Virus record (IMG/VR): IMGVR_UViG_2974799246_000001 | Coordinates: 1 to 64,000 of that record | Origin: a virus | Lineage: Duplodnaviria; Caudoviricetes | Strand: one strand, 5' to 3' | DNA: 64,000 nt | Part shown: in pieces, positions 1,758-31,799 of the stretch | Numbering within the stretch: the first letter of the stretch is position 1 | Layout of the letters: every line of letters begins with the position of its first letter | Translations under genes and position numbers: made by a program | Notes under the pieces: model-generated | What the model saw: only the letters and a program-made list of their open reading frames with translations | The model's database searches: none | What the model was told of the DNA's origin: nothing

Positions 1758-2553
1758 GTTCGAAGGTCCGTACGGACTCACTGAGACAGAGCACATGGTC
1801 CCACGCTGGACGTACCCTGTTAAGCATGGACAGGTTCGTCGTGTTGAAGCGTGGGAACTCGATACGATGCCGAATGCCACGCAGCAAGTGCGCATGGTAA
1901 ACGATATTCATGCAATCCACAGTACACCTGTAGAGGACTACGATGACGAACTCGACCTCGATGAAGAAGCCGCAACGATCTCAAAAACTGAGTCCAGACT
2001 TCTTATCAAGCCTCGACTCAATGAAATCCGCTCCCGTCACAACAAAGACCACATTAGTCCAGAGAACGTCTTCACCGTCAGCGACGAAGTAATTGATGGT
2101 GCGCTGGACAGCATTGACAGCTACTCGGAAACATTCCGCGAGTACCTGATGCACCATGTGTTCAGCCCGATACTTGGGTTTGACATTGCGGCAGGTGAAG
2201 TGGAAGCAATCGCCAAAGACTGTCTCAAAACAGATCTTGAGATAGACAGCGAGCTTGTGCCGTATATCGAGCGCGTAGGGCTTGCTAACGTTCTTGGCGC
2301 TATGCTTACGAAGTCCCAGTCAGTGCCCGAACAAGTACGCGCAGACGTTCTGAAAGACTGGTTAATTAAAGCGTTTGATGACGTTCGCGCAGAGCACAAA
2401 GCGAAGAACACCACCAATGGTCTTCGTGCGCAAATTCGTCGTCTAATGCACGGTAACACCGACCTTGTTGCTAAAGGCACTGGCACGGGTATCGGTACGA
2501 CAAGAGGATTTTCTGAGTACAGGAAACAGATGAACGAGAATGGCCAAGCCTAA
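1750..2553 (+). CDS. Hypothetical protein immediately upstream of the terminase large subunit
   Basis: Long ORF; probable GTG start at 1750 overlapping the upstream stop; overlaps the terL start. Confidence 0.65.
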   Translation: MSKFEGPYGLTETEHMVPRWTYPVKHGQVRRVEAWELDTMPNATQQVRMVNDIHAIHSTPVEDYDDELDLDEEAATISKTESRLLIKPRLNEIRSRHNKDHISPENVFTVSDEVIDGALDSIDSYSETFREYLMHHVFSPILGFDIAAGEVEAIAKDCLKTDLEIDSELVPYIERVGLANVLGAMLTKSQSVPEQVRADVLKDWLIKAFDDVRAEHKAKNTTNGLRAQIRRLMHGNTDLVAKGTGTGIGTTRGFSEYRKQMNENGQA

Positions 2554-5368
2554 GAAGGGTCCAGCTTTCTCCCTACGTCCAAAACGCATTGCGGCCTTTG
2601 ATGCGCTGCTTGGTGATGACGTACAGGTAGAGGCTTCCGCTGACATGGACTTCTTGTCAGATAATAGTTCAAGTGCGATTAACTTCTTGGAGAAGGGTGA
2701 GGTTAATATCGTTGACTTGGTTGAGGGCGCACTGGAACAACGCACCCTCGTACCACGCGATTTGAAGTTCGACGACAGTTCAATGCCTAAGGCGAAACAC
2801 TTCCTTGAGTGGTGCACTAGTCCCGACTTCCTTAAAGCCGAACCGTATCTTGAACAGGCCTTGATTGGTCTTCGCTTATTCGGAGAGATTTGCGTTCGCT
2901 GCTCTCCTAATCTGCAATGGATGTACACTGAAAACCACGAGCCACAAGAAACAACTGCCGCAATCGAGGAACACTTGCACCTGCTACATAATGGTGTGTG
3001 CCCTCATTGCGGCGCTCGTCGTTCTGAGATGATTCGCAAGAAAGAGATGAACTTCTACAACGAACTGGCTGTGAACGCCGGACAGCGTTGTGTGATTGCT
3101 TCAACTCCTGTTGTGACTTCTCGTGGTATCATGCCGATTGGTCATATGATGGTCGGCCACGACACTCCTGGTTTCCATAAGCCTCGTCGCAACTTCAATG
3201 CGCATAACGGGCGAGAGATCAAGAACGTCAGTCAGGTGTATGTCTCCGATGAAAGCCCAACGAAAGTCGTGACGCTTGCAAACGGCATGTGGATTGAAGC
3301 AACTCATGAGCACCCTGTGCGTACTGAGCAAGGCTTCAAGAAAGTGTCTAAGCTGAAAGTAGGCGACCGTATCGAGATCAAACTCGGTACGAACTCGTGG
3401 GGTAAGATTCAACGTCCTGTATCTATCTATGATGCTGGACTCTCCGTGCGCGAAGAAGCTCTGCGGTATATCGCTGATCGCTCGCTCGCAATCGGAGACA
3501 AGATGCAGTATGTGTCCGATGATGTTGACGCGCTACAGATGGTGTGGTCGATTCTTATCAATGCTGGCCATATGCCTCAAGTGTTACATGACACGCGAAG
3601 CTGGAGCATTGTTTATGATCTCAATGAGCCGCCTGAGTGCCGCTCTCTCCATGTCGAAGTGCAGTCAGTAGATGAAGGCACACCTCAGGTAACGTATGAC
3701 CTACAGATGGAGGGCTTGCCTCAATTCGTAGCGTCAGGCCTGCTGCATCACAATAGCGGTAAGTCGGTCGTGGTAGCGATGATCTCTACCTATCTGACAC
3801 ACAGACTGCTTATGTCGCAATCGCCTACTGGTATCTTGAGCATCGACAGCACAACCGTATTGCACGGAACGTTCGTCGCGCTGACCCAGAAGCAAGCGGC
3901 AGATACACTCTGGACACCGTACTTCAACTATATCATGGGTAGTCCTTGGTTCCAAGCCTATCACGATCTGATTCGCAAACACGAACGCCGTTACGGCATC
4001 GAGGTGATGAAGATTCGTGATACGTTCGTTCTGTACGGACACAGGAACTTCGTTATCTACCCAGCAGGTCCAGATGGTCGTATTCTTCGTGGTCGAACTC
4101 GTGTACTGGCGGTGATCGATGAGGTGGCGTATTTCGACAACGACGCCCAATCCAAAAAGATCAAAGTCAGTGCTGGTGCTGTATACGGAGCACTCGACCG
4201 TTCACTTGCAACCGTGCGAGCGAAAGAGAAACGACAAGTCGAGGCAGGCTACGACGAGGCATTCACGGGCTACTTCTGCAACATCAGTAGTCCGGTACAC
4301 GCTCGTGATAAAATCAATGAGCTGTTGCGTATGTCAGTAGGCTCGGAGAAGCTGTTAGGCATTCATGCTCCTACGTGGAAGATGAACCCTGACATGCCAC
4401 GTAACTCCGAGTTCCTTGTCGAGGCATTCCGTCGTGACCCTGTTGGTGCAGCGCGAGATTATGGCGCAGAAGCACCGTTGTCTGCTAACCCGTTCATCAC
4501 GCAGCCTACGTTTATCGCAGATGCTATCCGTGAGAAAGGTCGTTCGATGTGTACCTACACGCATCATATCATTCGACACAAAGACGGTGAACGCCAGCGC
4601 TACGGTAGTCTGGTAAAAGCGGCAACGACAACCAAAGCGTCCATCCTTGCGATAGATGCTGGCTTCTCGAATAACAGCTTCGCACTCGTAACAGGCTCGC
4701 GTGGTGATGATGGTATTATCAGTGTTGACTGTCTGGTGGAGATCGTTCCAAAGCCGGGCATACCTCTGAACTATACTCTCATCTTTGACGAACTGCTTAT
4801 ACCTCTGTGTAAAGCGCGTAACGTGCGCGTCATGCTTGCTGACCAGTGGCAGTCTCTCAAACTGCTGCAAGACGCCAAGCTGAAAGTTGATTCGATTGAG
4901 GAGTCCGATCAGTACAGCCTGAAATATCAGGACATGTGGACTGTGAAGACGATGTTTGAATCCACTCCATCGAAAATCAGCTTACCGCGCATGACTCACG
5001 CCAACACGATTATGGACACGCTGAAATACGATGGCGATGAATATCCTCAGTGCTTCGAGAACAAACCAACAGAGCACTTGATCATGCAGCTCCAGACAGT
5101 GCAGGACACTGGGCGTAGCGTAATCAAGAACACAGGTGCAACCGATGACTTGTGGCGAGCGATGGCACTCATGGTCTATGGCTTCGAGTGTGGTAACTAC
5201 GACGAGTATCTGACGAAAGCGCCAGAAGTAGCAATCAACCGTGACCCGAATCGCTTGGGTCGTGTGGCGCATAGGCTTAACTCTGGCTCTGCTTCTATTG
5301 GCCGTCCACAGCTTAGTGGTGGTCGTGTTCTTGGCTCTGCGCGTACTCGGATGATCGGCCGTAAGTAA
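2540..5368 (+). CDS. terL: Terminase large subunit, intein-containing
   Basis: After intein removal Walker A reads GQRSGKS; LRGRT..VIDEVAYF Walker B, NISSP coupling motif, AIDAG RNase-H-like nuclease motif and C-terminal DDLWRA; N-terminal CxxC pairs; lies upstream of a portal-like gene. Confidence 0.88.
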   Translation: MAKPKKGPAFSLRPKRIAAFDALLGDDVQVEASADMDFLSDNSSSAINFLEKGEVNIVDLVEGALEQRTLVPRDLKFDDSSMPKAKHFLEWCTSPDFLKAEPYLEQALIGLRLFGEICVRCSPNLQWMYTENHEPQETTAAIEEHLHLLHNGVCPHCGARRSEMIRKKEMNFYNELAVNAGQRCVIASTPVVTSRGIMPIGHMMVGHDTPGFHKPRRNFNAHNGREIKNVSQVYVSDESPTKVVTLANGMWIEATHEHPVRTEQGFKKVSKLKVGDRIEIKLGTNSWGKIQRPVSIYDAGLSVREEALRYIADRSLAIGDKMQYVSDDVDALQMVWSILINAGHMPQVLHDTRSWSIVYDLNEPPECRSLHVEVQSVDEGTPQVTYDLQMEGLPQFVASGLLHHNSGKSVVVAMISTYLTHRLLMSQSPTGILSIDSTTVLHGTFVALTQKQAADTLWTPYFNYIMGSPWFQAYHDLIRKHERRYGIEVMKIRDTFVLYGHRNFVIYPAGPDGRILRGRTRVLAVIDEVAYFDNDAQSKKIKVSAGAVYGALDRSLATVRAKEKRQVEAGYDEAFTGYFCNISSPVHARDKINELLRMSVGSEKLLGIHAPTWKMNPDMPRNSEFLVEAFRRDPVGAARDYGAEAPLSANPFITQPTFIADAIREKGRSMCTYTHHIIRHKDGERQRYGSLVKAATTTKASILAIDAGFSNNSFALVTGSRGDDGIISVDCLVEIVPKPGIPLNYTLIFDELLIPLCKARNVRVMLADQWQSLKLLQDAKLKVDSIEESDQYSLKYQDMWTVKTMFESTPSKISLPRMTHANTIMDTLKYDGDEYPQCFENKPTEHLIMQLQTVQDTGRSVIKNTGATDDLWRAMALMVYGFECGNYDEYLTKAPEVAINRDPNRLGRVAHRLNSGSASIGRPQLSGGRVLGSARTRMIGRK
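3089..3754 (+). mobile_element. Intein (222 aa) in terminase Walker A, with degenerate endonuclease remnant
   Basis: Starts C-VIASTPV, block B ATHEHPV, block F TYDLQM, ends LLHHN followed by Ser+1 of SGKS. Confidence 0.9.
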
Positions 5369-10509: not shown

Positions 10510-11102
10510 TGGATTTATCTGCATTAGGTTACGCACCGAAGCAGTTCCGAGTAATCCCCGTTGAGAAGGGCAACCTCGTGACTGACTTCATTCAAGGTAA
10601 GTTCCGCGTTATCGGCGTTGAGTGCAACGCTCGTGGTGCTTACGGAAGCCCGATTCAAAAGAGTATTGCCCGTCGTTTCCCTGAAGTCGTGAACCGCGTC
10701 AACGCCGTTGATTACGAACACGAATTAACAATCGGTAAGACGCATTTGGTTCGCGTTCGCACTCAAGCCCGCCGTGATTTGTTTGTTGCTAACATGCACA
10801 TTGCGCGCGGCTTTGGTCTGGGTCTGAATGGTTCGTCTGAGGGGCATCATAAGCCCGTTAACCGTTTCAGTGAAAAGTTCCTGACGCGAGCGTTTGAACA
10901 TCTGCTGGAGCAGTGCGATAAAGAAAACATCGCACCAGACCGACAGATTGCTATTCAGCGTTTCTATGGCGGACTCGGCGGAGTTTCTTGGGAAGAGGTT
11001 TGTGTTGTGCTCGATGCTATCTGTGAGAAGCACCAGTTCAACATGTATGCCTACTTGCCAAAGAACTACAATACTAACTACGTGCGGGGTTCCGCGCAAT
11101 AA
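10509..11102 (+). CDS. Macrodomain protein (Poa1p/DarG-like ADP-ribose processing), divergent
   Basis: KGNLV, ECNARGAYGSPIQKSIARRFP, FVANM, GGLGGVSWEEV match the macro Poa1p-like pattern. Confidence 0.72.
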   Translation: MDLSALGYAPKQFRVIPVEKGNLVTDFIQGKFRVIGVECNARGAYGSPIQKSIARRFPEVVNRVNAVDYEHELTIGKTHLVRVRTQARRDLFVANMHIARGFGLGLNGSSEGHHKPVNRFSEKFLTRAFEHLLEQCDKENIAPDRQIAIQRFYGGLGGVSWEEVCVVLDAICEKHQFNMYAYLPKNYNTNYVRGSAQ

Positions 11103-11114
11103 CTCTGGGGTGTA

Positions 11115-11450
11115 TTGATGAACACAATACGCGGATTTGATTGGCTCTTTTACGGAGATGGAACCGATAGTGGCCAACACTCAATTGTAAGTCTTGTTGT
11201 CGATCAGACAGCAAAATCAATACAGGTAGAAGTAGAGCCAGGATGCGCCGTACCTGTAATTCAAGCGATTCAGGAAAATGATGTCCTGTACGCTCAGGCC
11301 GAAGCTGGCCTCTATCGTATTCGTTACAGTTGCTCGTTCCGAACGTTGGATGCTAACGTCTTCCCGCCCACCAAGACTAACTTCCAGTTGAAGTTGATCG
11401 CGTGTGACTTCCTTGCGGGTGTTACTACTCACGATAAACTTCTGGACTAA
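11115..11450 (+). CDS. Hypothetical protein
   Basis: ORF in operon context. Confidence 0.6.
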   Translation: MMNTIRGFDWLFYGDGTDSGQHSIVSLVVDQTAKSIQVEVEPGCAVPVIQAIQENDVLYAQAEAGLYRIRYSCSFRTLDANVFPPTKTNFQLKLIACDFLAGVTTHDKLLD

Positions 11451-12266: not shown

Positions 12267-13037
12267 ATGAGCAACGTTGATAAAACAATGCCACAAGGTC
12301 GCTGGGAATTTAATGAGCCAGTTGCTGCTGTCTTCGATAACATGTTGCAAAACTCCATTCCTTCGTATGACCGTATGCGCGACCTGACCTATCGTCTTGG
12401 TCGCCAGTTCGTAACTCCAGGTACGGCCATCGTTGATTTGGGCGCATCGCTCGGTCGCGCTATCGAACCATTCTGTGCTGAGTTCGGCGAGTACCATTAT
12501 ATTCATGCTGCTGACCGTCCCGAGCCAGATCGTGAAATCGGCAATCATTACTGCTGTTATGAAGTCGCACCGGCAATGCTTGAGCGTCTTCGTCAAAACG
12601 AAGTGCTGGTCAAGGCCAAAGCGAAAATCAGTAGTGAGTCGCTGGTTGAAGTCGATACTTTCCGCTTCGACGAGCAGGTTGAGTGCTCCCTGATTCTGAG
12701 TGTGCTGACTCTCCAGTTCACTCCTATCGAACATCGCCAACACATTCTGGAGAAAGTGTACGACTCTCTGGAGAAAGGCGGTGCTTTCATTCTGGTTGAG
12801 AAAGTGTTGGGTGACGACAACTTCCTTGACCGTTTGCTGGTAGACACCTACTACGGCATGAAGGGCGACAACGGTTATTCGCAAGAATCTATTGCGACTA
12901 AGCGCAAAGCTCTCGAAGGCGTACTGGTGCCTGTGAAAGCTGCATGGAACGAAGAACTGCTGCGTAAAGCAGGCTTCAACCGTGTGGAGTGTTTCTACCG
13001 CGACCTGAACTTTGCTGGATGGATCGCAGTCAAATAA
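12267..13037 (+). CDS. cmoA: CmoA-like carboxy-S-adenosylmethionine synthase
   Basis: WEFNEPVAAVFDNMLQNSIPSY, DLGASLG, LTLQF, GGAFILVEK, NGYSQESIATKRKALEGVL (cf. E. coli CmoA GYSELEISQKRSMLENVM, with the carboxylate-binding Arg kept), LNFAGWIAVK. Confidence 0.85.
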   Translation: MSNVDKTMPQGRWEFNEPVAAVFDNMLQNSIPSYDRMRDLTYRLGRQFVTPGTAIVDLGASLGRAIEPFCAEFGEYHYIHAADRPEPDREIGNHYCCYEVAPAMLERLRQNEVLVKAKAKISSESLVEVDTFRFDEQVECSLILSVLTLQFTPIEHRQHILEKVYDSLEKGGAFILVEKVLGDDNFLDRLLVDTYYGMKGDNGYSQESIATKRKALEGVLVPVKAAWNEELLRKAGFNRVECFYRDLNFAGWIAVK

Positions 13038-13048
13038 GGTAAAACGAA

Positions 13049-14104
13049 ATGAGCGTAAGTGGTGATATTTATAACATCCCTCAACCGTTCGCCATGTATT
13101 GTGGCAACTGTGAAACTCGTGCTCAGGCAAAAGTTGCCTCAGGCACAATTGAATGGGCGTCAGAGAAAGTCTGCTGCGTTGTCGCCGACGATAACGGCCT
13201 GTTCCCTGATGTGCCTCACATCAACATTGCAAGCGTCCATGCTACAGATGCGCGTACTCTGGTAATCGGCTGTGCACCGTTCGGCGGTAAGATTGACGAG
13301 CACATGGACCGCACTATTCGCAGTGCTATCTATCGTGGTCTGAACGTTGCTGCTGCAATGCACAATCGTCTGGCAGACAATCCTGAATACGTTGCGCTGG
13401 CTGAACAGTACAATGTCAAGCTGTACGACTTCCGTCACCGTCCTGACGCGTACCCACTCGGTACTGGTGAGAAGCGCAAAGGCATTCGTCTGCTGACTGT
13501 CGGCACAGATAGTTCCTGCGGTAAAAAGTTCACGACGCTGACGCTACACCGTGTTCTGAAAAAGATTCACGACGACACGGTGTTCTGCTCAACTGGCCAG
13601 ACTGGTTTCCTGATCAGCAATTGCGGCATCAACAACGATACGCTGGTAGCTGACTTCCTTGCTGGTGCCGCTGAGTCCTTATCGCCTGACGGCCCTGCTG
13701 ATCGTATCTATCTGATCGAAGGCCAGGGCGCAATCACTCACCCAGCGTACACTGGCGGCAGCATGAGTCTGATTGCTGGCTCGCAGCCTGACTACTTCAT
13801 CATGTGTCATGCGTGGGGACGTAAGAATCAGCTCGGTGTTAAACGCGCACCTGACCTTGCTTTCGAACTGAAGGCTAATCTGGATGCAGCAGCCATTCAC
13901 GGTCTTACTCCTAAGTATCTGGGCATCAGTATCAACTTCTCCGAGAGCGGCCTGACCATCGAAGAACAAGACGCTGAGATGTGCGCTCTGGAAGACCTGT
14001 ACGACATTCCAGTGTTCGACCCGTCGCGTGATAGTATCGTCATCAAAGAGATGGCCCATCATCTCAAGACGACTGTAATATTCAGGAGCGAGTCGAATGG
14101 CTAA
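13049..14104 (+). CDS. DUF1611-family protein (Rossmann-like + P-loop; DgcN-like)
   Basis: LLTVGTDSSCGKKFTT, STGQTG, DFLAGAAE, IEGQGAITHPAY, GSQPD..IMCH. Confidence 0.85.
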   Translation: MSVSGDIYNIPQPFAMYCGNCETRAQAKVASGTIEWASEKVCCVVADDNGLFPDVPHINIASVHATDARTLVIGCAPFGGKIDEHMDRTIRSAIYRGLNVAAAMHNRLADNPEYVALAEQYNVKLYDFRHRPDAYPLGTGEKRKGIRLLTVGTDSSCGKKFTTLTLHRVLKKIHDDTVFCSTGQTGFLISNCGINNDTLVADFLAGAAESLSPDGPADRIYLIEGQGAITHPAYTGGSMSLIAGSQPDYFIMCHAWGRKNQLGVKRAPDLAFELKANLDAAAIHGLTPKYLGISINFSESGLTIEEQDAEMCALEDLYDIPVFDPSRDSIVIKEMAHHLKTTVIFRSESNG

Positions 14105-14966
14105 ACATCCTCTTCGCAAGCTGTTTGAACAGCACGTAAAGAAAGAGGTCAAAGCCAAAGAAGTGGCCGTTCTGCTTTCGAGTGGCCTCGACGGTTTGGT
14201 TAGCGCACTCGCGGCGCATGATCTCGGCATCAAAGTTCACGCGTTCACGTTCCAGATGGGTGATGAACAGAGCTTCGATAGCAAACACGCTCGCATCGTC
14301 GCAGAGAAGATGGGATGGGAGTTCACTCTGGTTAAAGTGCCGACGTCTGACACTGCAATCGCTAAAGGGTGGAAACAACTCCATGCAAACTTCCGCTGCA
14401 TCAAAAAGCGTGATTATGAGTGTGCGTACCCTATGGTGTACTGCTACAAAGCGATCAAAGATGCTGGCCTGAAATACGTGCTTAGTGGTCTGGTGGCTGA
14501 CGGTTACTTCCTGTATAACCGTAACACGCACATCCAGAAAGTAAGCGGCCCTCACTCTATCGCTGAAAAGTATCACGCGTACCGCACCGAATACTTCCGA
14601 CCGTGGATCAAAAGCGGTAAGAAGTCGCTCGGCGTTGACGGCTATAACCCGAGCGGTATGCTGCAACACGAATTGCTGTGTGACCACTTCGGCCTTGTTC
14701 ACGTTAACCCGTGGATGCAGCCGAAAGTATTTGATTACTTCATCAAGTACACATGGCAAGAGCTAAACATGCCCAAGCAGAAAATGCCAATAACAACGGC
14801 TTGGGCAGATCACATCGCAGTTGTTGGGCATCGTCCACATCGCGGCTATCAAACAGAAGCTGGAGTGCCTGCGCACTTCGAACGCTTACTGGATAATCCT
14901 GAGATCAACTTCAACGGCCGCAAGCGCATCATGGACGTGGCCCGCGATTGGTCAACGAGGACTTAA
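14097..14966 (+). CDS. Asparagine-synthetase-like ATP-dependent amide ligase (synthetase domain only)
   Basis: PP-loop VAVLLSSGLDG, VLSGLVADGYF (cf. SGEGADELF), VNPWMQ and RPHRGYQ; no N-terminal Ntn glutaminase domain. Confidence 0.8.
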   Translation: MAKHPLRKLFEQHVKKEVKAKEVAVLLSSGLDGLVSALAAHDLGIKVHAFTFQMGDEQSFDSKHARIVAEKMGWEFTLVKVPTSDTAIAKGWKQLHANFRCIKKRDYECAYPMVYCYKAIKDAGLKYVLSGLVADGYFLYNRNTHIQKVSGPHSIAEKYHAYRTEYFRPWIKSGKKSLGVDGYNPSGMLQHELLCDHFGLVHVNPWMQPKVFDYFIKYTWQELNMPKQKMPITTAWADHIAVVGHRPHRGYQTEAGVPAHFERLLDNPEINFNGRKRIMDVARDWSTRT

Positions 14967-14967
14967 T

Positions 14968-15582
14968 ATGTTTGTACACATCATTGACGGTGGTATTGGT
15001 GGGTCTTATGTTGCTCACCAGTTAATGGAGGCTGGGTTTAAATGTCGCGTTCACTCTCCAAACAACAATCGTGTTCGGGCAGTACATGCGCCGTACCCTT
15101 CGCTTTCTATGGGTCACACTGAACAGGAAATTGAAAAGCATATCGGTAACGTGCTCGGTACGTTTCGCGGTATCTTCCTGATCAGTAGCTACGTGGGTTC
15201 GTTGATTGCAAATCAGATGATTGACCAGTGCGGCCAAAGCGGCAACATCATCACCTGTGACGATCTCAAATGTGGTTCAATACCTGTTGTTGCTTCATCC
15301 ATTTCTGTAAACGTCTATAAGAAGCAAAGACAACTGGCACGTATCTCGCATCGCCTGAAACACTTCGACATTGACCACGAGTTCATTGTCGCGGATAAGG
15401 CTGTGCGTTTTGCTGCTGGTTCGGAGTACGATGAGCACGATGCTCGAAAGGAGTTTAACAACAACGCCAAATTCCTTTCGAGTCCGTCAATGATTGTTGC
15501 TGCACACAAACTCGGTGTGAAGAACAGTATGTACCATAACTATGCGGGACTGGTGCGCGAGTTCCTTGAGAGGCGCCAGTAG
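14968..15582 (+). CDS. Hypothetical enzyme; N-terminus resembles glutamate racemase or a Rossmann dinucleotide-binding motif
   Basis: ATG 14968 with GAGGA RBS; IIDGGIGGSYVA...APY..HTEQEIEK; translationally coupled to the amide ligase. Confidence 0.5.
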   Translation: MFVHIIDGGIGGSYVAHQLMEAGFKCRVHSPNNNRVRAVHAPYPSLSMGHTEQEIEKHIGNVLGTFRGIFLISSYVGSLIANQMIDQCGQSGNIITCDDLKCGSIPVVASSISVNVYKKQRQLARISHRLKHFDIDHEFIVADKAVRFAAGSEYDEHDARKEFNNNAKFLSSPSMIVAAHKLGVKNSMYHNYAGLVREFLERRQ

Positions 15583-15871: not shown

Positions 15872-16327
15872 ATGAATCTGTTTTCTATTTTAAAGCAACA
15901 GGTAAAGAAAGCGCTGTCCACCGAAGCGAATCACGAACCAGAGATTCGTGCGTTGTTCGACTGGCGCTACTCTGTTGAGATCAAAGGCCAGATGTACATT
16001 GTTGGTAAGACTGGAGCAAACACTTGCTTCTATGTCGAGCCTGGTACTGACGAGCCGATTGCGTGTTACCCTGATGCGCTGCTGGAGAAGATTGATCAGT
16101 GGGGCGGAAGCAAGTACGTGACGTATGCCATTTACTTCAAGCGTTTCGAAAGCCCTGTCGCTGAGAATATCAAAGACCTGGAGAAAGCGCTGAAAGGCAA
16201 ACCGAAGTCGTACAAGAAAGGCTACTTCATCTGTGGCGTGACGCCGAAAGGTAAGCGTGTGAAACTCTATCGCTTGCAGCAAGGTCTGTCTGGTATGCAG
16301 TGGGTAGCTGTCGAACCTAAATCGTAA
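15872..16327 (+). CDS. Hypothetical protein
   Basis: ORF with GAGG RBS. Confidence 0.7.
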   Translation: MNLFSILKQQVKKALSTEANHEPEIRALFDWRYSVEIKGQMYIVGKTGANTCFYVEPGTDEPIACYPDALLEKIDQWGGSKYVTYAIYFKRFESPVAENIKDLEKALKGKPKSYKKGYFICGVTPKGKRVKLYRLQQGLSGMQWVAVEPKS

Positions 16328-18020: not shown

Positions 18021-18863
18021 ATGACAGTAATCAGCCCAATCCGATATCAGGGCAATAAGCGAAGCCTTATCCCGATTATTCTTGAGCACACGCCTTCTGT
18101 GCAGGACTGCCCTCGCATGGTGGACGTGTTTGGTGGTAGCGCTACTGTTTGTGCGAACATGCCGCAGAAGTTTCGCGTTTATAACGAACTGAGTCCTCAG
18201 GTGTACGATATCGTTAAGATGTTAGTCGAACAGGACCCGAAGAAAACTCTTGGTCAGGTCAAGCGACTGGTCAAACATTGGTGCCTGACTAACAGCAACG
18301 AAGCGAACTACGATGCGTTTCGTACCGTCGTCCAGAAGAAGCGCACTGCTATCTTGCATTATGTTGCACATCGCCACGCTCATTCGAACATGCTGCGATT
18401 CAACCAGCAAGGTGTGTACAATGTAGGCTTTGGTGATCGTGGTCTGATTGGTAAGTTCGATGAACTGGAACACGAACTCACTACATTCCACAAACATATG
18501 CAGGGCGTTCACCTGACGAACATGAAGTACGGCAAGCTGCTTGGTCGCTTAGGCCACCAGCTAGACTGCAACACGTTCTGCTACTTCGACCCTCCGTACC
18601 TGGCGAGTGGTGCGATGCAGTACGGTAAGTGGACAGAGCAGAATGAACGCAACCTGCTTACGACTCTGGAGCAGTTGAATCGTCGCGGTGTTCCCTGGAT
18701 GTTGAGCAACGTTATCGAGCACAGAGAGTTCTCAAACGATCTGCTAAAGCGTTGGTTAAAGAAACATGCGACAACCGTGCTCTATCCAAACAAAAGCTAT
18801 GCGATGAACAATGGCCAGAGCGGCTCGCATAGCACGATTGAAATTCTGGCAATGAACTATTGA
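18021..18863 (+). CDS. dam: DNA adenine methyltransferase (Dam/D12 class)
   Basis: SPIRYQGNK, DVFGGSA, RFNQQGVYNVGFG, YFDPPY, WMLSN. Confidence 0.9.
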   Translation: MTVISPIRYQGNKRSLIPIILEHTPSVQDCPRMVDVFGGSATVCANMPQKFRVYNELSPQVYDIVKMLVEQDPKKTLGQVKRLVKHWCLTNSNEANYDAFRTVVQKKRTAILHYVAHRHAHSNMLRFNQQGVYNVGFGDRGLIGKFDELEHELTTFHKHMQGVHLTNMKYGKLLGRLGHQLDCNTFCYFDPPYLASGAMQYGKWTEQNERNLLTTLEQLNRRGVPWMLSNVIEHREFSNDLLKRWLKKHATTVLYPNKSYAMNNGQSGSHSTIEILAMNY

Positions 18864-25600: not shown

Positions 25601-25904
25601 CCTGCTGGTAAAGATGTTCGGCCAGAACAAGCCATTCATCGTCGTGCGCCGTGACGCTATCGTGGAGAACGAAAAGCGTTTCGGTGATCGCGTTTACTTC
25701 TCTAATGGCGTTAACACCGTCACTGTGCCAAACATTCAAGGGCTTGACCTGGGTGATAAGCTCTACATTGCAGAAGACGGCGATGTGTATGAGTGGCATC
25801 CTCACTTCGAGCGTCCTTACGAAGCAGTATCGAACAACCAGACAGAAGCTCTGGCGTTTGGTCTGCATCCCATTGTCTTCCACACCGACACACGGAACAG
25901 CTAA
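25560..25904 (+). CDS. Hypothetical protein
   Basis: Stop coupled to the thyA start. Confidence 0.6.
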   Translation: MPTPVILLKQQTRDLLVKMFGQNKPFIVVRRDAIVENEKRFGDRVYFSNGVNTVTVPNIQGLDLGDKLYIAEDGDVYEWHPHFERPYEAVSNNQTEALAFGLHPIVFHTDTRNS

Positions 25905-27001
25905 TGTCACAACCACTTGATTTACGAAACCCGAACCACTACGAACTGTACTCTCTCCATAGCGTGGACGAGCAGTATATCAACCTGTGCGATGCAATCA
26001 TTGCTACTGGTACGCAAGAGTCCGATGCTGGTCGCACCGACGATACGTGGACGACTCTGATTGGCGTTGGTTTCCAGTTGCAGAACACGCACATTGCTTT
26101 CCCTGCACTGCTGTCCGCACGTAAGAACTGGAGCGCAGCCGTCGATGAGATGTGCTGGATGGCTCGCGGTGAAACGAACATCAACACTCTCGGCTCTAAG
26201 ATCTGGGACGAGTGGGCAGATGAAAGCGGTGAGTGCGGTCCAATCTACGGCGAGATGTGGCGTCGTTGGCCTGACATTAAAGCGTTCTTCGACTACACGC
26301 AGCCTATGGCGTCTTGCCCTACTGCCGATGTTATTCGTGTGCGTGACGAAATTCTGCGTATGCGTCAGGACGGCTACATCGAAACGCAACTGACTGACGG
26401 TCGCATCCTGTTTGAAGGTGAGATTGACCAGTTCGCTAACGCTCTGTATCACATCGAAAACCGTTCGCGTTCTCGCCGCATTCGTGTGCAGGGTTTCAAC
26501 CCAAGCTATGTGAACATGCAGGGTCTTCCTCCGTGTCACACTGAGTTTGAGTTCAACGTAACGAAGTCCACCAAGTACGAACAGGCGCAGGCCGATGCTC
26601 GCGGTCAGACGGTAGCGCAGGACAGTCTGCATATCACTGTCACCATGCGCAGCAACGACTGCCTGCTGGGGCGTCCTTTCAACATCATCGGCTACAGTGC
26701 AATGCACCAACTGATTGCGAAGTGGGCTGGCTTGAACGTTGGTGGCTTTACGCTGAATACGACGAACACCCACCTGTACGATCATCACCGTGAAGCATAC
26801 GCTAAACAGCGTGAGCAATGGATGACGTTGCGTGAACGTATGCAAACAACTGGCGAGCCTGTGAAATATCCTGTGCTCGAAATCTCCGATGATGTTATCG
26901 GTCTGACAGCTAAAGAACTGCTGGACAACGTTAACATCGACTGGTTCGAGCTGGTGGACTACAGCCCGATGCCAGCAGTAAAAGGACGTGTGACCAAATG
27001 A
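25904..27001 (+). CDS. thyA: Thymidylate synthase (ThyA type, with insertions)
   Basis: GRTDD, IWDEWA, GPIYGEMWR, SRRI, LPPCH, MRSND.LLG.PFNI (Asn = dUMP specificity), HLY. Confidence 0.92.
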   Translation: MSQPLDLRNPNHYELYSLHSVDEQYINLCDAIIATGTQESDAGRTDDTWTTLIGVGFQLQNTHIAFPALLSARKNWSAAVDEMCWMARGETNINTLGSKIWDEWADESGECGPIYGEMWRRWPDIKAFFDYTQPMASCPTADVIRVRDEILRMRQDGYIETQLTDGRILFEGEIDQFANALYHIENRSRSRRIRVQGFNPSYVNMQGLPPCHTEFEFNVTKSTKYEQAQADARGQTVAQDSLHITVTMRSNDCLLGRPFNIIGYSAMHQLIAKWAGLNVGGFTLNTTNTHLYDHHREAYAKQREQWMTLRERMQTTGEPVKYPVLEISDDVIGLTAKELLDNVNIDWFELVDYSPMPAVKGRVTK

Positions 27002-28969: not shown

Positions 28970-29668
28970 ATGGCAAAAATTGCTAAAACAAAGGAAGGGA
29001 AAAAGAAAAGCGCGATGAAGTTTGACTTGAAAACGCTCAAGACTTCACAACTGAAAGGCGCTGATTACAACCCTCGTTTCATTACAGACAGCCGCCTGAA
29101 AGCACTCGAAAGTTCTTTGGGTAGCTTTGGCGATCTGTCTGGCATCGTCTTCAACAACAGTGTCAAAAGCGGCGTATTGATCTCTGGCCACCAGCGTCTG
29201 AAATCCATCGACGGCTGGAAGACTCGCATTGAGATTCAGAAAGCCTCCGACCAACACGGTACCGTAGCTCTGGGTTACATCCACGCTACGCACCCGAAGA
29301 AAGCCGAGAAGGTTATCAGTATCCCGTTGCGTATCGTTAACTGGACTGATAAGAAAGCCGAGTACGCTGCGAACATCGCGGCGAACGCGCACGGCGGTGA
29401 GTTCGATAACAAGAAACTCGCCAAGCTGGTGGAGAAGCTGGACTTGACCACCATCAAGCCTCAGTTGCTGGGTCTTGACCCACTTGAGATTCGCGGCCTT
29501 CAACAAAAGCTGAAAGGCCAGGCTGCGGTTGTAGCTCAAGAGCGTGTCGGTAAAACTACAGGCCAGATGAACGGCAGTAGCGGTGCGTTCAAAGAGTATG
29601 GTACGGACGAAGTAGGTGAGAGTCTGAACTGCACCTGCCCGCGCTGTGGATTTAAGTTCGAGGGATAA
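28970..29668 (+). CDS. ParB/Srx-like N-terminal domain protein with C-terminal Zn ribbon
   Basis: LKGADYNPR, LISGHQRL, NIAANAHGGEFD, CPRCG; directly upstream of the C5-MTase. Confidence 0.8.
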   Translation: MAKIAKTKEGKKKSAMKFDLKTLKTSQLKGADYNPRFITDSRLKALESSLGSFGDLSGIVFNNSVKSGVLISGHQRLKSIDGWKTRIEIQKASDQHGTVALGYIHATHPKKAEKVISIPLRIVNWTDKKAEYAANIAANAHGGEFDNKKLAKLVEKLDLTTIKPQLLGLDPLEIRGLQQKLKGQAAVVAQERVGKTTGQMNGSSGAFKEYGTDEVGESLNCTCPRCGFKFEG

Positions 29669-29669
29669 T

Positions 29670-31799
29670 ATGATCATCAAGCCGCCTACTATGAAGGAAA
29701 TCAACAAGCTGGATAAACCCTGGCGTGGTATGAGTTTCTTCGCAGGTTGCGGTGGATCTTCTACCGGTCACAAGATGGCCGGTATCAACATCCTGTTGAG
29801 TAACGAGTTCGTGGATAGTGCCCGCGAGTCTTACGAAGCAAACCATCCGACTACTAAAGTGCTGCCGCATGATATTCGTCGTCTGGACCCGAGCAAGCTC
29901 ATGCGTTATTGTGGCTTGGCGAAAGGCGAACTGGATTTACTTGACGGCAGTCCTCCGTGCTTTACCGAAGACACCATCATTCATACAGCAGACGGCATGA
30001 AGTTCATCTCGGACATGAATGTCGGCGATCAAGCAATGACCTCTGTTGGTCGTTACTTCCCTGTGTACGATACTATGGTTCGTCCGTATGTCGGCACGAT
30101 GCACAAAATCGAAACTCTGCTGGGCGCAAACAACGCTACACCAGAGCATCCGTTCTTTGTCAGACGCAGCATTCCTACTGGCGGCTACACTGACCCGTTC
30201 TGGTGTGATGCGAAAGACGTTCAGGAAGGTGACCTGTTAGGTAGCCCGCGCACTACGCCTGACATGGGACTCGACGTGTATCAGTCTCAACTCGATCAGC
30301 TGCCGAAGCAGATTGCAGAGTGGAGCACATTCCCTGAGTTCTGGTGGATGGTTGGACACTGGTGTGATCGCGGTTCGATTGAAACAGTGAGCGGTGTTGA
30401 AGTCGTTAGCTTTGAGTCGCACTCAAGCCTCGAAAACGCAATGATTGAGCAGGCGTTTGACGCGCTGAAAATCAGCAGCCTGAACCGTATCGACACGATG
30501 ACAGCACAACGCAAAACGTTCCGTATCGTTATGGACGCAGAGCTGGTGCAGTTCTTACGCCGATTCGTCAGTCAGGGCAACAACAAGTTCTCTCGTCGTC
30601 TGCCTGCGATTGTCTTCCACCTGACAGTCGAATTGAAGCAACAGTTCATTCTCGGTTGTGCCGGTCATGACTATGTGACTGGTATGGGAACAGGCTTGGC
30701 GATCACCTCAGATAGCCGTCGCTTCCTGATTGAGCTGAACTACCTGTGCTGTTCTGCATTCAACCGACCGCTGTTCGATGGTCTGACTTGGGGCGACGTT
30801 TACTTCGGCAGCCCGATGACTCCGCGTGATCGTAACAGTGTTAAGCCTCTCATTGGCTTCCTGTTCCTGCAGGACGAACACAACTTCTTCCACGAGTTCG
30901 ATGACGCTGACCCGCATTTGTGGGTAGAAGTGATTGAGAACCTCGCGTATCAGGCGACATGTGACGTGTACAACTTCTCCGTTGAGACGGATGAAACATA
31001 CGTTGCAAACAGCATGGTCGTTCACAACTGCAAGGGCTTCTCTACTGCAGGTGTGAAAGAAGAAGGCTGGGGCAAGGAAGTTAAATACAGCGATAACAAG
31101 TATCAGCAGGTTGATGACCTGTTCGATCAGTATTGTCGTATGCTGGAAGGCATGAAGCCGAAGGTGTTCACTGCGGAAAACGTGAGTGGCCTTGTGAAGG
31201 GCGCATCGAAAGGTTACTTCCTTGAAATCATGAAGGAGTTCGACCGAATAGGTTATTACGTTCGAGCACCTATGCTTAATGCTGCGTGGCTTGGTGTGCC
31301 TCAATCGCGTGAGCGTATCATCTTTATGGGTGTACGCAAAGACGTTGCACACGCACTGGGTCACAAGACGGCTGCGGCCGCTGTGCCGAATGTTGTTCCG
31401 TGTGACAGTATGGCATTCCTTGCCGATGCTCTGCCGCATATTCTGCGATACAAGTCCACGAAGAAAGATATCATCACCTATCTTCCTGCGATGAACGGAC
31501 CTATGCCAACGATCACTGCTGCCGACGCCATTGCGTATGAGACCGCGCGATTCTCATCGGCTGGCTTCGTCGAGGACAACAAAGGTCATCGCCGTAAACT
31601 GACCATTGACGAACTCAAAGTGATATCGGGTTTGCCCTCAGACTACAAACTGAAAGGCAAATTCGAAGAACAGTGGGAACGTCTTGGTCGTATCTGTGTG
31701 CCTGCAATGACACACGCAGCGGCTAAAGCGCTCATCGAACACGTCCTGATTCCTTACGCGAAGAAACGTAAGAAGAAGCCAGGCGATATCTTTAAGTAA
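29670..31799 (+). CDS. C5 DNA cytosine methyltransferase-family enzyme, predicted carboxymethyltransferase; intein-containing
   Basis: FAGCGG (motif I), GSPP|CKGFS (IV), ENVSGL (VI), PQSRERI (VIII), RKLTIDE..ISGLP (IX); motif X reads QWERLGRICVP instead of Q..Q.GN.V.P. Confidence 0.88.
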   Translation: MIIKPPTMKEINKLDKPWRGMSFFAGCGGSSTGHKMAGINILLSNEFVDSARESYEANHPTTKVLPHDIRRLDPSKLMRYCGLAKGELDLLDGSPPCFTEDTIIHTADGMKFISDMNVGDQAMTSVGRYFPVYDTMVRPYVGTMHKIETLLGANNATPEHPFFVRRSIPTGGYTDPFWCDAKDVQEGDLLGSPRTTPDMGLDVYQSQLDQLPKQIAEWSTFPEFWWMVGHWCDRGSIETVSGVEVVSFESHSSLENAMIEQAFDALKISSLNRIDTMTAQRKTFRIVMDAELVQFLRRFVSQGNNKFSRRLPAIVFHLTVELKQQFILGCAGHDYVTGMGTGLAITSDSRRFLIELNYLCCSAFNRPLFDGLTWGDVYFGSPMTPRDRNSVKPLIGFLFLQDEHNFFHEFDDADPHLWVEVIENLAYQATCDVYNFSVETDETYVANSMVVHNCKGFSTAGVKEEGWGKEVKYSDNKYQQVDDLFDQYCRMLEGMKPKVFTAENVSGLVKGASKGYFLEIMKEFDRIGYYVRAPMLNAAWLGVPQSRERIIFMGVRKDVAHALGHKTAAAAVPNVVPCDSMAFLADALPHILRYKSTKKDIITYLPAMNGPMPTITAADAIAYETARFSSAGFVEDNKGHRRKLTIDELKVISGLPSDYKLKGKFEEQWERLGRICVPAMTHAAAKALIEHVLIPYAKKRKKKPGDIFK
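29958..31028 (+). mobile_element. Intein (357 aa) with decayed LAGLIDADG domain, inserted just before the catalytic Cys
   Basis: C-FTEDTII, ATPEHPF, VYNFSVETDETYVANSMVVHN|C; degenerate blocks MVGHWCDRGS and FILGCAGHD. Confidence 0.9.

Follow-up and report, generated by a model that had tools for sequence, protein, structure and literature searches.

Positions 29,670 to 31,799 of the DNA stretch analysed here, hereafter the window (the first 64 kb of the 265,146-bp virus record IMGVR_UViG_2974799246_000001, rated complete by CheckV), hold a gene in which the two halves of a DNA cytosine C5-methyltransferase (C5-MTase) are separated by an intein. Judged from its sequence and predicted fold, this gene very probably encodes an intein-split CmoX-type DNA cytosine C5-carboxymethyltransferase, which would act in a CmoA/CmoX/CmoY pathway together with a gene cluster located upstream. 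By megablast, the window was grouped with the Alexandra-type jumbo phages of Erwinia amylovora; the gene itself is 96-98% identical to its counterparts in pEa_SNUABM_18, 16 and 28, 88% to that of vB_EamM_Alexandra, and 83% to that of Dickeya phage AD1.

The CmoA/CmoX/CmoY system has been described as a DNA-camouflage system by Yang et al. (Nat Commun, December 2025; PMC12783734). Its transferase from Synechococcus phage S-B43, SpCmoX (PDB 8YF3), is a DNA cytosine C5-carboxymethyltransferase. In the crystal structure, R350 of SpCmoX contacts the carboxymethyl group of carboxy-S-adenosyl-L-methionine (Cx-SAM); the wild-type enzyme takes Cx-SAM only, and the R350N variant is inactive (PMC12783734). 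The SPPC motif with the catalytic Cys served as a search criterion for CmoX, and 5,615 Arg-type candidates were obtained, of which 4,257 had a CmoA on the same contig and many had a ParB-domain neighbour; the ParB association was noted, and its function was left open (PMC12783734). An engineered C5-MTase, M.MpeI N374K, also accepts Cx-SAM.

The open frame of the window gene extends from a GTG at 29646 to 31799. The ATG at 29670 is preceded by a GAGGG Shine-Dalgarno sequence and begins 1 nt past the stop codon of a ParB-like gene. The Pfam profile DNA_methylase (PF00145) matched the 709-aa product at 1.8e-38 in two pieces, with Hint and intein-splicing matches in between. The C5-MTase motifs I (FAGCGG), IV (PPC), VI (ENV), VIII (QSRER), and X were all located. 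This agrees with an earlier note on this DNA, made from the sequence alone, which had listed a full set of motifs with motif X reading EEQWERLGRICVP and a spliced product of 352 aa; excision of the intein gives exactly 352 aa. An identical 709-aa product is present in NCBI and UniRef, where it is named hypothetical protein or DNA (cytosine-5-)-methyltransferase.

Evidence for the cofactor comes from the Arg in motif X, ERLGR. When the C-extein was compared with all PDB sequences by phmmer, 8yf3 (SpCmoX) came first at 1e-31, with ERLGR aligned on ERVGR and the Arg on residue 350. In the weaker phmmer alignment to HhaI, the same Arg stood opposite N304 of FGN. Moreover, the same Arg column was obtained when the spliced protein was aligned by MAFFT with gp309 of Pseudomonas phage PaBG and with the SpCmoX sequence of the S-B43 genome. 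The Arg is thus the equivalent of R350 and N304 as judged from columns of sequence alignments. The earlier claim that an Arg occupies the canonical Asn site therefore holds; of the precedents given with it, two also stand, since the use of Cx-SAM by M.MpeI N374K is confirmed in the literature and the use of an Arg for the Cx-SAM carboxylate by a natural CmoX is seen in the R350 contact in 8YF3 (PMC12783734). The other precedent, E. coli Dcm N436K, was not found in the literature searched.

The rest of the enzyme points in the same direction. The best PDB match of the N-extein was likewise 8yf3 (1.4e-20), and the matches of M.HaeIII to the N- and C-exteins were far weaker (1.9e-5 and 4e-12, respectively). 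The M.MpeI structure 4dkj matched the first 114 residues of the C-extein only (E 7e-4). In the 8yf3 alignment, the SpCmoX contacts F25, E47, F48, D69, and S95-C98 (SPPC) are all kept in the window enzyme. An AlphaFold2 (AF2) model of the precursor, built from a 91-sequence alignment in which the catalytic Cys (C454) is an invariant column, had a mean predicted local distance difference test (pLDDT) score of 83.9, mostly above 90 in the extein parts. When this model was compared with the PDB by Foldseek, 8yf3 was again on top (E 4.6e-16; template modelling (TM) score 0.74 on the target), followed by HhaI, HaeIII, and MpeI.

The intein interrupts motif IV after its two prolines and immediately ahead of the catalytic Cys. 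All features of a class 1 intein are present, namely Cys1, TPEH, HN, Cys+1, and a Hint fold, and the profiles Pfam Hint_2/Intein_splicing and TIGR01443 matched it. Since the intein starts with Cys1 and ends with HN directly before the Cys of motif IV, the +1 splicing residue is the catalytic Cys of the transferase. Excision joins GSPP to CKGFS, so that motif IV, and with it SPPC, would be restored only after splicing. The intein was present in every Erwinia, Dickeya, and Yersinia relative examined, including gp43 of phage Yoloswag (702 aa), and the splicing residues Cys1, TPEH, HN, and Cys+1 are kept here, in Yoloswag, and in the Yersinia phage. It is absent from PaBG and from the closest metagenomic homologues (345-353 aa, 70-71% identity). 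Between genera, the identity of the exteins remains at 72-83%, whereas that of the intein is down to 27-53%, with insertions and deletions.

The central domain of the intein is of the LAGLIDADG type. Its motif 1 is non-canonical (GHWCDRGS), and the Yoloswag and Yersinia orthologues have other residues in place of both acidic ones; the endonuclease activity is therefore uncertain. Within Alexandravirus, the ratio of nonsynonymous to synonymous substitution rates (dN/dS) was about 0.05-0.16 for parts of the intein and about 0.10 for the central domain, which indicates that this domain is still constrained, and a dead endonuclease is not claimed. No Pfam LAGLIDADG match was found in the intein, and a sequence comparison with the PDB gave only a marginal match to a bacterial intein-like domain (E 0.21). 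In the AF2 model, the central domain resembled the TliVMA, PhoVMA, and PI-SceI inteins (Foldseek E 5e-11 to 5e-10; TM 0.49-0.68 on the target). The window intein shares with these a Hint splicing domain with an inserted endonuclease-like domain, but it differs from them in its place, at the motif IV catalytic Cys of a C5-MTase, and in its motif 1.

The intein relatives were searched among 1.84 billion representative proteins, and the best 150 were considered. The idea that the insertion site is unique was rejected, because at least 60 of these 150 occupy the same point in other C5-MTases, right in front of the catalytic Cys. The hosts of such same-site inteins were mostly ordinary Asn-type enzymes with the pattern P|C...HN|CQD(I/L)S, and 10 of the best 150 were in ERLGR-type enzymes. 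As a separate observation, the large terminase subunit (phrog_17415, 942 aa; 2540-5368, + strand) has an intein-splicing match at about 3215-3754, so that the genome contains at least two inteins. Terminase inteins are mentioned for this phage group in the PaBG paper, where no intein of another gene is named.

The earlier note had also assigned the transferase to a cluster about 15 kb upstream, which contains a cmoA homologue and a CmoY-like ligase gene; the cmoX and cmoA genes are about 16.6 kb apart. The window enzyme is the sole C5-MTase in the 265-kb genome, which has one cmoA, and no CmoB was found in that genome. Therefore, phage-made Cx-SAM has no evident consumer other than the Arg-type enzyme. 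Comparative gene order gave the strongest support for the link. In PaBG, the genes for a ParB-like protein, a C5-MTase (ERLGR, no intein), CmoA, a p151-like protein (p151 is a 151-aa protein of the window), and asparagine synthase form one block, gp310-gp306, whose members are listed as ParB-like, C5-MTase, 'tRNA methyltransferase', hypothetical protein, and asparagine synthase. The genes run ParB-like, CmoX, chorismate mutase, CmoA, ligase, and p151-like in L010, a 278-kb contig of a metagenomic phage, and ParB-like, CmoX, a 105-aa open reading frame (ORF), CmoA, ligase, and p151-like in L016, a marine contig of 225 kb. In an Azospirillum Mu-like prophage, an Arg-type enzyme lies 0.9 kb from a methyltransferase that weakly resembles CmoA (23% identity to the window CmoA, E 1.8e-11). 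The split arrangement of cmoX and cmoA was also found in Yersinia phage fHe-Yen9-02. The tie between cmoX and the upstream cluster is supported by the contiguous orthologues in PaBG, L010, and L016. The further statement that neighbourhood-based mining would miss this tie is only partly fair, because Yang et al. searched whole contigs.

The chorismate mutase of L010 is of type II (PF01817, 8.8e-12; 11022-11375) and lies between CmoX and CmoA; no PF01817 chorismate mutase was found in the genome of the window. The L010 gene suggests that some phages also raise the supply of prephenate, which CmoA uses as co-substrate; Yang et al. had left this point open.

The Arg is a rule of the family. Among the window protein and its 120 best C-extein homologues, 117 of 121 carry Arg, mostly in a QQWERLGR context, and 4 carry Asn; the Arg is thus not a chance substitution. 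It is kept in all Erwinia, Dickeya, Yersinia, and PaBG relatives examined. The four Asn-type proteins (P0053, P0064, P0088, and P0095), whose motif X reads QQWERLGNSVP, form one clade nested among the Arg-type proteins with an SH-like support of 99 in a FastTree tree that was rooted at the midpoint only. At the Asn-type loci L014 and L015, the ParB neighbour is kept, and the available flanks contain no CmoA or ligase gene. In the six sampled neighbourhoods, CmoA was found near all four Arg-type enzymes and near neither of the two Asn-type enzymes, in agreement with the contig count of Yang et al. (4,257 of 5,615; PMC12783734). The Asn clade may be a natural reversal to the use of S-adenosyl-L-methionine (SAM), although R350N is inactive in SpCmoX.

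From these data, the following course may be proposed. The 709-aa precursor would be inactive, with its class 1 intein separating the catalytic Cys from the two prolines that precede it in motif IV. Splicing would use this Cys as the +1 nucleophile and join the exteins into the 352-aa enzyme. Enterobacterales carry a CmoA of their own, and Cx-SAM would be supplied by the phage and host CmoA proteins together. Arg317 of the spliced enzyme would pair with the carboxylate of Cx-SAM, and the carboxymethyl group would be transferred to C5 of cytosine in the phage DNA, yielding 5-carboxymethylcytosine (5cxmC). The CmoY-like ligase would then probably amidate the carboxyl group, possibly followed by further processing of the product by the DUF1611 and GxGxxG proteins of the cluster. 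DNA modified in this way would be shielded from host nucleases.

Three other explanations were weighed. Since a basic residue alone is no proof of exclusivity, and the Asn-to-Lys variant of M.MpeI accepts Cx-SAM, the window enzyme could be relaxed in its cofactor, using both SAM and Cx-SAM and leaving a mixture of 5-methylcytosine (5mC) and 5cxmC, as expected for an enzyme like engineered M.MpeI N374K. We consider this unlikely, because the natural Arg enzyme SpCmoX took Cx-SAM only (PMC12783734), all the listed cofactor contacts of SpCmoX are kept in the window enzyme, and a phage-encoded CmoA argues for Cx-SAM as the intended cofactor. The enzyme could instead be an ordinary SAM-dependent 5mC methyltransferase that tolerates the Arg, and the phage CmoA could be used for something else, such as modifying tRNA or depleting SAM. 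The database name DNA (cytosine-5-)-methyltransferase or hypothetical protein and the distance between cmoA and cmoX are in line with this, and SAM depletion by CmoA was raised as a possible side effect by Yang et al. (PMC12783734). However, the closest relative of solved structure has the same Arg and is proven to be a carboxymethyltransferase, the genome lacks a CmoB that could use Cx-SAM on tRNA, the orthologous genes lie together in PaBG, L010, and L016, and the two Asn-type relatives examined have no CmoA nearby; this explanation is thus highly improbable. The last one supposes a non-functional remnant, whose intein no longer splices and which gives no active transferase. The non-canonical motif 1 and the replaced acidic residues in the Yoloswag and Yersinia orthologues do speak for an old element, but decay of the endonuclease leaves splicing unaffected, and every lineage compared has retained the splicing residues. 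Furthermore, the 709-codon frame is uninterrupted in more than 40 phage genomes, and the dN/dS of the exteins versus Alexandra and AD1 is 0.04-0.06, a sign of strong purifying selection on the spliced product. A remnant is therefore scarcely credible.

Several observations weigh against a CmoX-type carboxymethyltransferase served by the upstream cluster, or limit how far this assignment can be carried. The cmoA homologue matched TIGR00740 at 9.6e-43, but its score of 146.6 bits is under the cut-off of 193.3. The match falls into two pieces because the homologue has an insertion of about 35 residues (12461-12567, profile positions 67 to 88) compared with the bacterial CmoA. The target-recognition region of the transferase gave no sequence alignment to SpCmoX; hence the GC specificity is not transferable, and the target motif is not inferable. 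The natural control is a small sample, with four neighbourhoods of Arg-type enzymes and two of Asn-type enzymes, the latter with short flanks. That the precursor splices is predicted from motifs, and a literature search gave no paper on modified bases in Alexandra-, AD1-, or PaBG-type phages. Nevertheless, a CmoX-type carboxymethyltransferase is the explanation that we favour.

The coordinates of the transferase gene, its parts, and the associated genes are given in Table 1.

Table 1. Features of the putative split CmoA/CmoX/CmoY system, with positions in the window.
Feature	Position	Strand	Evidence or remark
cmoA homologue (carboxy-SAM synthase), presumed cofactor supplier	12267..13037	+	PDB matches 4gek, YecO
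DUF1611/DgcN-like gene, between cmoA and ligase gene	13049..14104	+	Pfam DUF1611 4e-45
CmoY-like ATP-dependent amide ligase, asparagine-synthetase PP-loop domain, no glutaminase domain	14097..14966	+	PF00733 5.5e-14
204-aa ORF starting MFVHIIDGGIGG, GxGxxG dinucleotide-binding motif	14968..15582	+	
p151, 151-aa protein	15872..16327	+	phrog_23597; near ligase gene in four lineages
ParB-like gene, Cys-rich C-terminal tail	28970..29668	+	phrog_620 1e-32
cmoX precursor gene, 709 aa, C5-cytosine transferase plus intein	29670..31799	+	PF00145, AF2 model, fold match 8YF3
N-extein, 96 aa	29670..29957	+	motif I FAGCGG; NEF and HDI cofactor contacts; C-terminal GSPP
Intein, 357 aa	29958..31028	+	Cys1, block B TPEH, central LAGLIDADG-type domain, terminal VVHN
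Catalytic Cys codon (C454 precursor, C97 spliced), also predicted intein +1 nucleophile	31029..31031	+	
C-extein, 256 aa plus stop	31029..31799	+	catalytic Cys first; ENV, QSRER, target-recognition region, motif X
Motif X Arg codon CGT (R674 precursor, R317 spliced)	31689..31691	+	equivalent to SpCmoX R350, HhaI N304

The best PDB matches of the cmoA homologue were E. coli CmoA (4gek, 5.5e-31) and YecO, and the Arg corresponding to E. coli R199 is kept. It is 30% identical to SpCmoA, which is experimentally active, and 42-47% identical to the CmoX-adjacent CmoA proteins of PaBG, L010, and L016. The CmoY-like ligase aligned with SpCmoY over its full length at 33% identity (E 3e-49). The DUF1611 gene matched NF041892 DgcN at 2e-83, under the cut-off. 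It was found in 32 Erwinia/Dickeya phage records only, at varying positions, and in neither the cluster of the Yersinia phage nor PaBG; the accessory chemistry thus probably differs among the phages. In the Yersinia relative, another gene, ligase-like and of 331 aa, is present instead. The content of the cassette thus differs even among closely related phages. The 204-aa GxGxxG protein had no match in Pfam, NCBIfam, or PHROG, and is 28% identical to the product of a gene in the same cluster of the Yersinia phage.

The protein p151 may be a fifth component of the system. It is 34-37% identical to the products of genes beside CmoY/CmoA in L010 (13007-13525), L016 (13043-13495), and PaBG (L004:7572-8024), and both its invariant motif, GK(T/G)GANT, and its place beside CmoY/CmoA are kept in four diverged lineages. 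Its AF2 model (pLDDT 88.9) consists of two alpha/beta halves. No clear PDB match was obtained for it, as Foldseek gave nothing below E 0.19. The best Z in VIA-align wide was 7.1 (YkuJ, N-terminal half only), which is at the background level, and Atlas gave no usable match.

The ParB-like gene precedes the transferase gene in every lineage examined, including L009, L010, L014, L015, and L016. Its product resembles the ParB-type N-terminal module of ParB-fused methyltransferases (phrog_498) and is 45% identical to PaBG gp310, which likewise precedes the PaBG CmoX. Many of its homologues are on contigs that match in size those with CmoX homologues. Pfam ParB_N had no match in this gene or in the whole genome, and the ParB assignment is based on the matches to PHROG 620/498 and on homologues that carry a ParB-like annotation.

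Two other genes were noted in this part of the window. A Dam-type N6-adenine DNA methyltransferase gene (PF02086, 4.9e-25; 18021-18863, + strand) lies between the cmoA cluster and cmoX, and its product is a second DNA modification enzyme of the same early region. A protein of the thymidylate synthase family (25793-27001, + strand) is unusually long at 402 aa, with the Pfam match, to a 266-position profile, covering residues 60-400.

Compared with SpCmoX, the window enzyme has the same C5-MTase fold, SPPC, a GWGK..YSD insertion after motif IV, ENV, QxRER, and a motif X of the form ER(L/V)GR, and both phages have a CmoA and a CmoY-type ligase. However, SpCmoX has no intein, whereas an intein of 357 aa precedes the catalytic Cys here; the N-extein is about 55% identical, and the target-recognition region, which directs SpCmoX to GC, cannot be aligned. 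In S-B43, whose host is a cyanobacterium, cmoX is contiguous with cmoA and cmoY, while in the window phage, with Erwinia as its host, the loci are separated, a ParB-like gene is directly upstream of cmoX, and the DUF1611 and GxGxxG genes are extra. When the phages of Erwinia, Dickeya, and Yersinia are set aside, PaBG contains the closest orthologues among cultured phage genomes (CmoX 47-48%, with ERLGR; CmoA 42%; ParB-like 45%; p151 34%; ligase 26%). PaBG differs in having no intein, a single gene block, and no DUF1611 gene, and the PaBG paper neither annotates nor discusses the block as a DNA modification system. The M.MpeI N374K enzyme shares with the window enzyme a basic residue in place of the motif X Asn, which in M.MpeI N374K pairs with the Cx-SAM carboxylate and is predicted to do so here. 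Nevertheless, it is a CpG methyltransferase of a distant branch with an engineered Lys, while the Arg of the window enzyme is natural and a rule of its family.

Yang et al. have already published the enzyme class with its Arg signature, its partners CmoA and ligase, and its association with ParB (PMC12783734), and the present case is no conceptual advance. What is new is a split, intein-bearing, and unannotated system in a large group of cultured jumbo phages, together with the contiguous gene orders of PaBG and the metagenomic contigs, which tie the two loci, and the nested Asn clade as a natural control. The AD1, PaBG, and pEa_SNUABM proteins were not found in the supplements of Yang et al., including the part of the source-data file that was covered. 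A further-reaching proposal, which we regard as rather doubtful, is that the Alexandra-type phages of Erwinia and Dickeya possess an undescribed cytosine hypermodification, in which 5cxmC would be amidated by the CmoY-like ligase and then tailored by the lineage-specific DUF1611/DgcN-like enzyme and the GxGxxG protein. In that proposal, the intein, with its Cys1 beside Cys+1, could be a possibly redox-sensitive post-translational gate that sets the time at which the transferase becomes active, and the ParB-like protein could load the enzyme onto DNA.

The CmoX-type assignment favoured above would extend the system described in 2025 from a marine cyanophage to more than 45 genomes of Erwinia, Dickeya, and Yersinia phages and to Pseudomonas phage PaBG, where the genes are still annotated as hypothetical or 'tRNA methyltransferase'. 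Such jumbo phages of plant pathogens are cultured and easily grown, so that the modified base would be directly measurable. The accessory genes vary, with those for DUF1611, GxGxxG, and p151 here and a chorismate mutase gene in a relative; they suggest that the carboxyl handle is modified further and that the supply of prephenate is under phage control. In the biocontrol of fire blight by phages, a hypermodified genome would also bear on host range, sequencing, and restriction analysis.

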